From NCBI GenBank assembly GCA_000002435.2, contig CM018789.1: DNA of 64,000 nt, one strand, 5' to 3'. Below, in pieces: positions 7,770 to 9,815 of this stretch. The first letter of the stretch is position 1, and each line of letters starts with the position of its first letter. The translations under genes and the position numbers were made by a program. This DNA is from Giardia intestinalis (taxonomy: Eukaryota). The notes beneath the pieces were generated by a model, which did not search any database, was not told the origin of the DNA, and was given only the letters and a program-made list of their open reading frames with translations.

Positions 7770-9815
7770 ATGTTCCAACTGATACCCCTGTTCATGGCAA
7801 GCGCGCTCATGGCGCCTTGTCAGCCAGATGGGAATCACCTGACCACTTGCGCACACGAAAAGTGCGAGACGGTCGGGTCAGCCGAGATTTGTACCGAGTG
7901 CAAGGTCGGAGGCGTCCCGGTCGACGGCTTCTGCCGACCCTTCGGCTCCATCCAGGCCGCGGCGGCCGGGTGCACCAAAGCAGACGGGGCTGCTCTCGAC
8001 AAGATGACAGCAACCTGCGAGAAGTGCGGCGACGGGTACTTCCTCTTCATGGGCGGGTGCTACAAGACGAGCCTGTGGTCTGAAGTCTGCACAGCAGCCA
8101 GTAATGGAGTATGTACTACTTGTAATACAAAGAACGGCCTGTTCAAGAACCCGGCTGCAACAGTGACTCCTGGTAACGAGTGCATCCTGTGCTCCGATGC
8201 TACAGATAGAAACGGGGTCATGGGAGTGGAGAATTGTCTCAAGTGCACGGCGCCAGGTGGCAATACAGGAGCAGCCGCGTGCACTGCCTGCAAGGCTGGC
8301 TTTTATGGGTCCGGTCCATGCACAAAGTGTCATGACGATTGTGCTACTTGCAGTGGCGCAGCAAATAATCAGTGCACATCTTGTAAGGCTGGAAAGTACC
8401 TGAAGACCGATACTAACACTTGCGTAGATGCTGGTAGTTGTAATGGAAACACTTATGCTGATCCAGTGACAAGGACATGCAAGGATTCTGCAATAACTGA
8501 TTGCACCACGTGTGAGTACAACCCGGCAACTGGGGGCCCAAAGTGCACAGCCTGTGGTAACAGTAAGAAGGTGAAGACAGCCATCGACGGCGCCACAACG
8601 TGCGTGACGGTTGCATCCGAATGTGTGGATGAGAATCACTTTAAAGATGACGGTAACACTATGTGTGTGCTATGCAGTGATACCAGCGGGTCAGACCCAA
8701 ATAAAGGGGTAGCGCAGTGCAAGACATGTACTAAGAATGGAGCTAACAAGCCTGAATGCAAGACATGCCTCGAAGGGTATGTTCTGAAGGGGTCTGGTGC
8801 TGACGCCATTTGTGAGTCTTGTGGAAACAACTGTGCAGTGTGTACCGCAGCCAATGATATATCGACTTGTACAGGGTGCCTTCCCGGGTACTTCCTAAAA
8901 GCCGAGGGTGGAACAAAAGAGTGCGTCCCGTGTGATGACACAGCCAAAGGTGGTCGTGAAGGCTGTAGTCTATGTTCTAGCAACGGTGGATTTAAGTGCA
9001 CAGATTGTAAAGCGAACTACAGGAAGCAGTCTAATGGAGATGCAGGCGATGACTATACATGTGTGAAGACCTGCGAGGACCCTACTGTGTGTGGGGGGAC
9101 GTCTGGAGCCTGCGATGCCATAGTGATCGATGCTAATGGAAAGGAGCATTATTACTGTTCATACTGTGGAGAGACCAATAAGTTCCCCATTGATGGACTA
9201 TGTACTGATAACAAGGGAACAAATGCTGGGTGTACTGATCATACTTGCAGCTACTGTGCTGCCGGGTTCTTCCTGTACATGGGTGGCTGCTACAAGATTG
9301 ATACAGTACCAGGAAGCTATATGTGCTCCAAATCAACAACAGCAGGTGTCTGTGATACACCCAATGCCAACAATAGATTCTTCGTTGTCCCAAAGGCAAT
9401 AAGTGCCGAACAATCTGTGCTGGCTTGTGGCAACCCATTGGGCACAATTGCAGGCGGTAATGCCTACGTCGGAGTGGAGGGGTGCTCCCAGTGCACGGCC
9501 CCCGACGCTCGAGCTGATGGCGGCATGGCGGTTGCCACGTGCACGGCCTGCGAGGACGGCAAGAAGCCCGGCAAGAGCGGCACCGGGTGTGTGGCGTGCC
9601 CTGATGCTAACTGCAAGAGCTGCACGATGGATGACGTATGTGAAGAGTGTGCTGATGGGTTCAGTCTAGACAATGGTAAGTGTGTGTCTTCTGGCACTAA
9701 TAAGAGCGGCCTTTCTACCGGCGCCATCGCTGGCATCTCCGTCGCAGCCATCGTCGTCGTCGGGGGCCTCGTCGGCTTCCTCTGCTGGTGGTTCATCTGT
9801 CGGGGGAAGGCGTAA
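7770..9815 (+). CDS. Variant-specific surface protein (VSP-1), 681 aa from ATG 7770
   Basis: The protein has dozens of CXXC motifs, GGCY motifs, a C-terminal hydrophobic transmembrane segment and the invariant tail NKSGLSTGAIAGISVAAIVVVGGLVGFLCWWFICRGKA*. The track ORF starts at GTG 7698 inside GC-rich DNA. The first ATG (7770) gives a typical signal peptide MFQLIPLFMASALMA and lies in CTAATGTT (7767-7774), a start-codon-spanning motif shared by all four VSPs here. Stop TAA at 9813-9815. Confidence 0.92.
   Translation: MFQLIPLFMASALMAPCQPDGNHLTTCAHEKCETVGSAEICTECKVGGVPVDGFCRPFGSIQAAAAGCTKADGAALDKMTATCEKCGDGYFLFMGGCYKTSLWSEVCTAASNGVCTTCNTKNGLFKNPAATVTPGNECILCSDATDRNGVMGVENCLKCTAPGGNTGAAACTACKAGFYGSGPCTKCHDDCATCSGAANNQCTSCKAGKYLKTDTNTCVDAGSCNGNTYADPVTRTCKDSAITDCTTCEYNPATGGPKCTACGNSKKVKTAIDGATTCVTVASECVDENHFKDDGNTMCVLCSDTSGSDPNKGVAQCKTCTKNGANKPECKTCLEGYVLKGSGADAICESCGNNCAVCTAANDISTCTGCLPGYFLKAEGGTKECVPCDDTAKGGREGCSLCSSNGGFKCTDCKANYRKQSNGDAGDDYTCVKTCEDPTVCGGTSGACDAIVIDANGKEHYYCSYCGETNKFPIDGLCTDNKGTNAGCTDHTCSYCAAGFFLYMGGCYKIDTVPGSYMCSKSTTAGVCDTPNANNRFFVVPKAISAEQSVLACGNPLGTIAGGNAYVGVEGCSQCTAPDARADGGMAVATCTACEDGKKPGKSGTGCVACPDANCKSCTMDDVCEECADGFSLDNGKCVSSGTNKSGLSTGAIAGISVAAIVVVGGLVGFLCWWFICRGKA

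Follow-up and report, generated by a model that had tools for sequence, protein, structure and literature searches.

A tail-to-tail pair of Giardia intestinalis VSP genes sharing a 3-kb inverted repeat that starts at codon 31

Two VSP genes with a common body and different 5′ ends

The stretch of DNA analyzed here (the window; 64,000 nucleotides [nt] of contig CM018789.1, assembly GCA_000002435.2) stems from chromosome 1 of Giardia intestinalis WB clone C6, as both of the predicted proteins considered below match WB chromosome-1 records exactly. It carries two genes for variant-specific surface proteins (VSPs), here called copy A and copy B, which lie inverted and tail to tail on the same chromosome, with 5132 nt (9816-14947) between their open reading frames (ORFs). 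Their locus tags and 5′ sequences match Table S1 of a preprint on this gene family (bioRxiv 10.1101/2022.03.07.483299). The two genes are part of a long inverted repeat, the outer edge of which falls inside both coding sequences (CDS). The features of the pair are as follows:

7770-9815, plus strand: copy A, VSP GL50803_00112113 (681 amino acids [aa]; KAE8301282.1/XP_001704836.2), with a TAatgTT initiator and a CRGKA tail
7770-7859, plus strand: A-type 5′ module (signal peptide and 16 codons), outside the repeat; 80 of 90 nt identical to GL50803_00114674
7860-10890, plus strand: left arm, 3031 nt of perfect identity covering codons 31-681 and 1075 nt of 3′ flank
9825-9839, plus strand: extended VSP polyadenylation motif ACTTAGGTAGTAAAC, with its mirror copy at 14924-14938 on the minus strand
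10891-10926: imperfect zone at the left inner edge (2-bp indel at 10891-10892, mismatches at 10903 and 10909)
10927-13838: spacer, unique and GC-rich, 2912 nt
13839-13872: imperfect zone at the right inner edge, partner of 10893-10926
13873-16903, minus strand: right arm, reverse complement of 7860-10890
14948-16993, minus strand: copy B, VSP GL50803_0050375 (681 aa; KAE8301283.1/XP_037901545.1), with a CAatgTT initiator
16904-16993, minus strand: B-type 5′ module, outside the repeat; 85 of 90 nt identical to GL50803_00137614 and 81 of 90 to a gene on L001, a contig from another sample

Both translations matched the Pfam family VSP (PF03302, E = 3.9e-43), contained 79 Cys and 27 CXXC motifs in a cysteine-rich ectodomain, and terminated in ...GLVGFLCWWFICRGKA*, that is, in a C-terminal transmembrane segment followed by the CRGKA tail. 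The candidate initiator PyAatgTT (PMC2996952, section 6) is intact in both genes (TAatgTT at 7768-7774 in copy A; CAatgTT at 16995-16989 in copy B), and an extended polyadenylation motif of the class ACTYAGRTAGTRAAY is present just 3′ of either stop codon, as recorded for both genes in Table S6 of the preprint. For copy A, Table S1 of the same source lists the signal peptide entry as SP = Y and predicts a sequence of 19 aa, MFQLIPLFMASALMAPCQP. The catalogue of Adam 2010 (PMC2996952) lists copy A under the name vsp159 (“4A1/CRISP90”, GL50803_112113). That older model had 693 aa and started at ATG 7734; its mass of 70.4 kDa, 79 Cys, and 27 CXXC agree with copy A. The in-frame ATG at 7734, which underlies this older model, lies 36 nt 5′ of the annotated start, and the current model of copy A begins at the TAatgTT initiator (7770). 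Copy B most likely corresponds to vsp181 of the same catalogue (680 aa, 69.3 kDa, 79 Cys, 27 CXXC, CAATGTT). The consecutive GenBank numbers KAE8301282.1 and KAE8301283.1 suggest that no protein-coding gene is annotated between the two copies.

Ungapped perfect identity between the copies extends from 7860 to 10890, which equals the reverse complement of 13873-16903 (3031 nt, zero differences); a gapped blastn alignment pairs 7860-10926 with 16903-13839 at 99.87%. The length of 3052 nt returned by the repeat finder is an over-extension by ∼20 misaligned bases past the 2-bp indel. The arm opens with AAGTGCGAG at 7860, which is AAG, codon 31 (K31), and not codon 30 as given in the initial annotation, and it continues for 1075 nt beyond the stop codon. 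The two predicted proteins differ only within residues 1-30.

Perfect identity is also what a collapsed or falsely duplicated repeat in a long-read assembly would produce, and early inverted VSP pairs were doubted as artefacts (section 1.5 of the preprint). For the pair described here, such an artefact is exceedingly improbable: the 5′ ends of the copies are both genuine VSP 5′ ends yet unlike each other, the unique flanks differ as well, the spacer sequence is unique, and the 5′ flank of copy B is collinear with contigs of unrelated samples (see below). Both gene versions are, furthermore, present in an independent Sanger-based catalogue, which lists a 693-aa TAATGTT gene (vsp159) and a 680-aa CAATGTT gene (vsp181), each with 79 Cys and 27 CXXC.

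The outer edge of the repeat and the two 5′-end types

Outside of the arm, the first 90 nt of the CDS and the upstream flanks differ between the copies. The signal-peptide codons were identical at 14 of 42 nt, which is chance level; over the 200 nt upstream of the CDS, identity was 17%; and the nearest 300-nt window upstream had a GC content of 70.7% in copy A as opposed to 50.7% in copy B. The signal peptides and the 5′ flanks are, thus, as unrelated as the initial annotation had described them, including the difference in base composition of the flanks. The ∼45 bp upstream of the arm that it had considered alignable but diverged were recovered as a zone of 48 nt (7812-7859) with 28 of 48 positions identical. 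Aligning the N-terminal regions and flanks at the nucleotide level revealed an abrupt switch to 100% at the outer edge, where 8 of the last 10 positions before 7860 are mismatched, and an imperfect zone at the inner edge; the graded homology proposed for both edges is, therefore, restricted to the inner one. Residues 15-30 (APCQPDGNHLTTCAHE in copy A versus APCQQDGDHIVTCQVN in copy B) differ at 7 of 16 positions. Considering the 19-aa signal peptide predicted for copy A, the mature N-termini would differ at the membrane-distal tip, and the mature antigens are predicted to be nearly identical, not identical as had been assumed. Otherwise, the features that the initial annotation listed are present where it placed them.

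The meaning of the diverged 48 nt became apparent from comparing the first 400 nt of the CDS with those of paralogues (sequences from Table S1 of the preprint). The A-type 5′ end (MFQLIPLF...) is also found in GL50803_00114674 (P0011) and GL50803_116477 (P0012), the B-type 5′ end (MLLTAFY...) in GL50803_00137614 (P0010), in VSP4A1 of another isolate (P0004), and on contigs L001 and L002. Identical positions were distributed as follows:

Copy A versus 114674: nt 1-42, 39/42; nt 43-90, 41/48; nt 91-190, 86/100
Copy B versus 137614: nt 1-42, 38/42; nt 43-90, 47/48; nt 91-297, 207/207
Copy A versus copy B: nt 1-42, 14/42; nt 43-90, 28/48; nt 91-400, 310/310

In all comparisons of an A-type with a B-type gene, 27-31 of the 48 positions at nt 43-90 (56-65%) and 83-86 of the 100 positions at nt 91-190 were identical. 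As 28/48 equals the value of every A-type by B-type comparison, the outer zone, with its 58% identity, represents the normal divergence of two 5′ modules and is not a decay gradient. Across nt 90/91, the relationships are phylogenetically incongruent: over nt 1-90, copy A groups with 114674 and copy B with 137614, whereas over nt 91-297, copy A, copy B, and 137614 are the same. Position nt 91 (KCETVG...) is the onset of homology across the compared clade-I VSPs, and the outer edge of the repeat coincides with this end of family homology. Because homology begins at nt 91, a tract of recombination between an A-type and a B-type gene is expected to stop there; the endpoint observed, at nt 90/91, does sit within donor-recipient homology (83-86% across types over nt 91-190), as is proper for a recombination tract. 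The outer boundary is best read as a recombination junction between paralogues, and not as the clean end of a duplication beside unrelated DNA. Of the gene-conversion footprint suggested in the initial annotation, recombination between paralogues is retained; graded homology, on which it was based, does not apply to the outer edge.

The same junction could have arisen by inverted duplication of a whole gene and a later crossover or rearrangement with a VSP gene of the other type, which replaced the 5′ end and upstream flank of one copy with a breakpoint in the conserved block from codon 31. Canonical inverted pairs all share their 5′ upstream sequence (preprint section 1.6; PMC2996952, Table 5), VSP loci coincide with synteny breaks (PMC7000408), and another repeat edge inside a CDS is known, that between copy B and 137614 at nt ∼298, all of which would accord with this sequence of events. 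We consider it rather unlikely, since the upstream flanks, at only 17% identity, offer no upstream homology in which a conversion tract could end, so that a reciprocal rearrangement would be required. No leftover of a shared upstream region was seen either, and the scenario needs one event more than direct copying into a resident paralogue.

The inner edge, mosaicism, and origin of the pair

At the inner edge, near-identity stops at 10926 (= 13839), followed by weak similarity to ∼10942 and unrelated sequence thereafter. The mismatches and the 2-bp indel that the initial annotation had reported here (10890-10930 / 13835-13872) were located at 10891-2, 10903, and 10909. These three events (one indel and two substitutions) are the only differences between the arms, and all of them fall within the last ∼36 of ∼3067 aligned positions; the chance of such clustering is ∼(37/3068)^3, i.e., ∼2e-6, according to our own arithmetic. 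The confinement of all three differences to the inner end of the arm is a real heterogeneity and favors later homogenization of an older repeat. A single and very recent inverted duplication by fold-back or break-induced copying, with no subsequent conversion and with the 36-nt inner zone as the site of priming or template switching, would likewise account for the absence of any difference over 3031 nt, for the abrupt outer edge, and for the imperfect inverted match (50 nt, 82%) exactly at the junction of arm and spacer. It presupposes, however, a pre-existing inverted match of 34 nt at 94%, which is very improbable by chance, and identical VSP genes of WB occur only in inverted pairs (PMC2996952), as predicted by ongoing homogenization and not by ∼20 coincidentally recent events. 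We, therefore, regard a single duplication as unlikely.

The spacer and the upstream flank of copy A contained no VSP remnant (tblastn), no Pfam domain in their ORFs, no Rfam family, no tRNA, and no relevant tandem repeat. The gene-free stretches at 6223-7769 and 10927-13838 are unusually long for Giardia, with a GC content of 57-71%; no mutual similarity between them was detectable within the window. According to the preprint, the intergenic DNA of the pair resembles gene-free subtelomeric regions.

The body shared by copies A and B is itself a mosaic. In a window-by-window comparison, their residues 31-90 were identical to P0010 at 60 of 60 positions, residues ∼181-270 to P0005 at 89 of 90, and residues 451-660 to VSP4A1 at 210 of 210 (window positions 9120-9749 and the mirror); outside of those blocks, identity to the three proteins was only 30-60%. 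Over their C-terminal ∼230 aa, copies A and B are 100% identical to VSP4A1 (P0004), which takes its name from clone O2-4A1 of another isolate, compared with 26-46% in the middle of the protein; the C-terminal part is a mosaic block shared across isolates. Gene 137614 (P0010), also located on chromosome 1 but outside the window, equals copy B over nt 52-299 (nt 52-297 at 16697-16942) and copy A over nt 91-299 (nt 91-297 at 7860-8066); past nt ∼298-300, its identity falls to ∼57%, which constitutes a second repeat edge within a VSP CDS. Use of this locus tag differs between sources, 137614 denoting a 547-aa gene in Adam 2010 and 00137614 a 689-aa gene in the 2020 annotation. Between copy B and 137614, differences were restricted to nt 28, 31, 33, 36, and 51, with none further until nt 300, so that their perfect tract crosses the junction between copies A and B and finishes inside the CDS. 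These tracts make copy B a hub: it has nt 1-297 in common with 137614, and everything from nt 91 to 1075 nt past the stop codon in common with copy A. On grounds of parsimony, this position weakly favors copy B as the putative donor in both events. Identity profiles supported neither direction of transfer, as neither copy shows a step at nt 91 relative to 114674 or L001.

Taken together, we consider it likely that copies A and B are partly duplicated VSP genes, the arms of which became identical through homologous recombination between two clade-I genes, one of the A-type and one of the B-type. Recombination would have proceeded by gene conversion or by duplicative copying with a resident paralogue as the recipient. 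The outer endpoint at CDS nt 90/91 would then reflect the start of homology, upstream of which a heteroduplex or copying tract could not go further, so that the initiator, the signal peptide, the 16 N-terminal codons, and the flank upstream would have remained particular to each copy. The inner endpoint would lie in non-coding DNA, the last homogenizing tract ending at 10890 and the imperfect stretch of ∼36 nt representing an older repeat edge that it missed.

Several points weigh against this interpretation. The comparison is limited to the WB locus, with no second isolate to show the ancestral state of either locus; the direction is not provable, as neither copy drops in identity across nt 91 when compared with 114674 or L001; and the zone of “decay” at the inner edge is defined by three differences only. 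Perfect identity could also reflect one very recent event without ongoing conversion. In addition, the geometry is atypical, with ORFs 5132 nt apart and 1075 nt of shared 3′ flank, compared with 2393-3222 and 318-559 nt, respectively, in other tail-to-tail pairs.

Inverted VSP pairs as such are well documented in Giardia WB, an example being the vsp1267 pair. In Adam 2010, the inverted pairs that have the same ORF twice number 14 (10 of them tail to tail), with 2190-3847 bp between the ORFs and flanks identical up to a point of abrupt divergence, and with no identical genes outside such pairs (PMC2996952); Xu 2020 counted 19 inverted pairs (PMC7000408). Copies A and B resemble them in their inverted orientation on one chromosome, in arms that are 100% identical into the non-coding flank until a point of divergence, and in a unique, gene-free spacer. 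Unlike the canonical pairs, the ORFs are not identical (codons 1-30 differ, with 14/42 and 28/48 nt identical), the outer edge lies inside the CDS (nt 90/91) with 5′ upstream sequences not shared (17%), and the distance between the ORFs (5132 nt) exceeds the 2-4 kb otherwise encountered (2393-3222 nt for tail-to-tail pairs), as does the shared 3′ flank the published tail-to-tail range (1075 versus 318-559 nt). The spacing, the unshared 5′ upstream sequence, and the non-identical ORFs qualify the pair as a partly duplicated member of the inverted-pair phenomenon. In large palindromes such as those of the primate Y chromosome and in plastid inverted repeats, the arms are kept identical by arm-to-arm gene conversion. 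The identical arms of copies A and B, the unique spacer, and the divergence confined to the edge between arm and spacer are reminiscent of those systems, one Giardia genome having been examined here.

Neither of the published tables of inverted pairs (PMC2996952, PMC7000408) includes copies A and B. The Adam 2010 catalogue lists the copies apart, vsp159 without a pair flag and vsp181, the probable copy B, flagged “HH” (PMC2996952), and Table S1 of the preprint has “-” under “duplicated_with” for both genes. That the pair was left uncounted in 2020 and 2022 is attributable to the ORFs differing at their 5′ ends. The preprint (Rodriguez-Walker; bioRxiv 10.1101/2022.03.07.483299) does name both genes as neighbors and states that some VSPs are partially duplicated. 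It describes the pair as “head to head” and 5,172 nt apart, whereas the sequence of the window has them tail to tail and 5,132 nt apart; both the distance and the orientation term of the preprint appear to be slips. The portions of its text and tables available to us contain neither the breakpoint at codon 31 nor the two 5′-end types or the inner-edge zone. Recombination among vsp genes was previously deduced from Sawyer/GENECONV tests (PMC2996952, section 10) and from the VSP arrays of G. muris (PMC7641422). Like those cases of segmental recombination, copies A and B feature blocks of 100% identity between VSPs that are otherwise 30-60% identical, with breakpoints in conserved blocks; the published tests centered on the conserved 3′ region, whereas the breakpoint found here coincides with the 5′ homology boundary, with a tract that extends 1.1 kb past the gene. 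Both the phenomenon and the locus are already in the literature, to which the placement of the breakpoint at the 5′ homology boundary of the family adds modestly. Giardia is thought to diversify its antigen repertoire through inverted VSP pairs and VSP mosaicism, and the locus is a clear worked example: a repeat edge exactly at the 5′ homology boundary of the family, and a gene, copy B, with different perfect tracts to two others. It can assist annotation and the planning of expression studies, leaves the current understanding unchanged, and is an ordinary product of recombination within the VSP family.

Expression, neighboring genes, and other samples

Judging from the intact PyAatgTT initiators and the unrelated flanks, the two copies may be independently promoted. 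In the clones of the preprint, sense transcripts of GL50803_00112113 amounted to 0 transcripts per million (TPM) with unique reads and to 2-4 TPM with two-location mapping; within the data that it provides, the pair is silent in the clones studied and its copies are not separable. GL50803_112113 was elevated at the RNA and protein levels in metronidazole-resistant lines, where it was listed under a single gene ID with no separate entry for copy B (PMC8866875). Sequence that distinguishes the copies is confined to the first 90 nt (ATGTTCCAACTG... in copy A versus ATGTTATTAACAG... in copy B) or 30 residues (DGNHLTTCAHEK versus APCQQDGDHIVTCQVNK); beyond these, neither read mapping nor proteomics for GL50803_00112113 can split them.

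A functional role of the partial duplication, in which two VSP expression units that are epigenetically independent (with differing initiator, upstream DNA, and signal peptide) would control the same antigen body, appears very doubtful to us. Were it correct, the odds of that antigen being switched on would be raised, and serology could tell the products apart by the membrane-distal tip of 16 residues with its seven differences. Along similar lines, read-through over the convergent arms may generate a hairpin RNA of 3 kb that enters RNAi-based silencing of VSPs. The antisense TPM values of the pair (∼170-290 in the tables of the preprint) do not leave the range that single-copy VSPs and ordinary genes show there; being unexceptional, they lend the hairpin or antisense RNA idea no support.

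Beyond the pair, the following features of the window were considered:

55-6222, plus strand: PRP8 ORF, 2055 aa, with the Pfam PrP8 domains PROCN, U5 and U6 snRNA-binding, RRM, and domain IV
6223-7769: gene-free flank between PRP8 and copy A, GC 59-71%, unrelated to the upstream flank of copy B
16994-18271: head-to-head intergenic region between copy B and the 540-aa VSP, conserved (mostly 88-100%) in contigs L001 and L002
18272-19894, plus strand: head-to-head neighbor VSP of the AS12 type (540 aa, 54.8 kDa, 60 Cys), matching vsp183/GL50803_13727 (Adam 2010)

A homologue search with the C-terminal 600 aa of PRP8 returned no match at E ≤ 1e-100, not even PRP8 itself, so the protein may be missing from the collection searched. 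The start of the arm, searched as an exact pattern, had 0 matches among JGI metagenome contigs, and the route via the DNA-primase neighbor led to two Logan contigs that end ∼430-715 bp short of the primase gene and, thus, before the VSP cluster.

The contigs L001 and L002 stem from two ENA samples that are unrelated, and both align collinearly to 16560-19910, at 89% overall and mostly 88-100% across the neighbor VSP and the intergenic region. The VSP gene that takes the place of copy B on them has a B-type 5′ end and a different gene body, which shows the B-type 5′ context to be genuine and conserved even as gene bodies are exchanged. On L001 (3022-5096), and likewise on L002, this B-type VSP is split by a frameshift into 456 aa and 234 aa, and its body is unlike copy B after nt ∼250. 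The first 399 aa of the neighboring 540-aa VSP are identical to a 547-aa AS12-type VSP of the preprint table, from which it follows that chromosome 1 holds two paralogous head-to-head VSP units. The genes on L001 and L002 are, for this reason, only uncertain candidates for strict orthologues of copy B.

Directly 3′ of the 540-aa VSP lies a VSP fragment (19949-21046, plus strand) without ∼105 N-terminal codons and 55% identical to residues 104-399 of the pair, which has the appearance of a pseudo-VSP belonging to a short array in head-to-tail order. An 11-nt tandem repeat (19921-19956; GATGATAGTGG x3.3) is located at its upstream end. Farther downstream, at 61542-63293 on the minus strand, a VSP-like ORF of 583 aa from a TTG start matches other VSP 3′ ends at 86-89% over its 3′ ∼120-165 nt.

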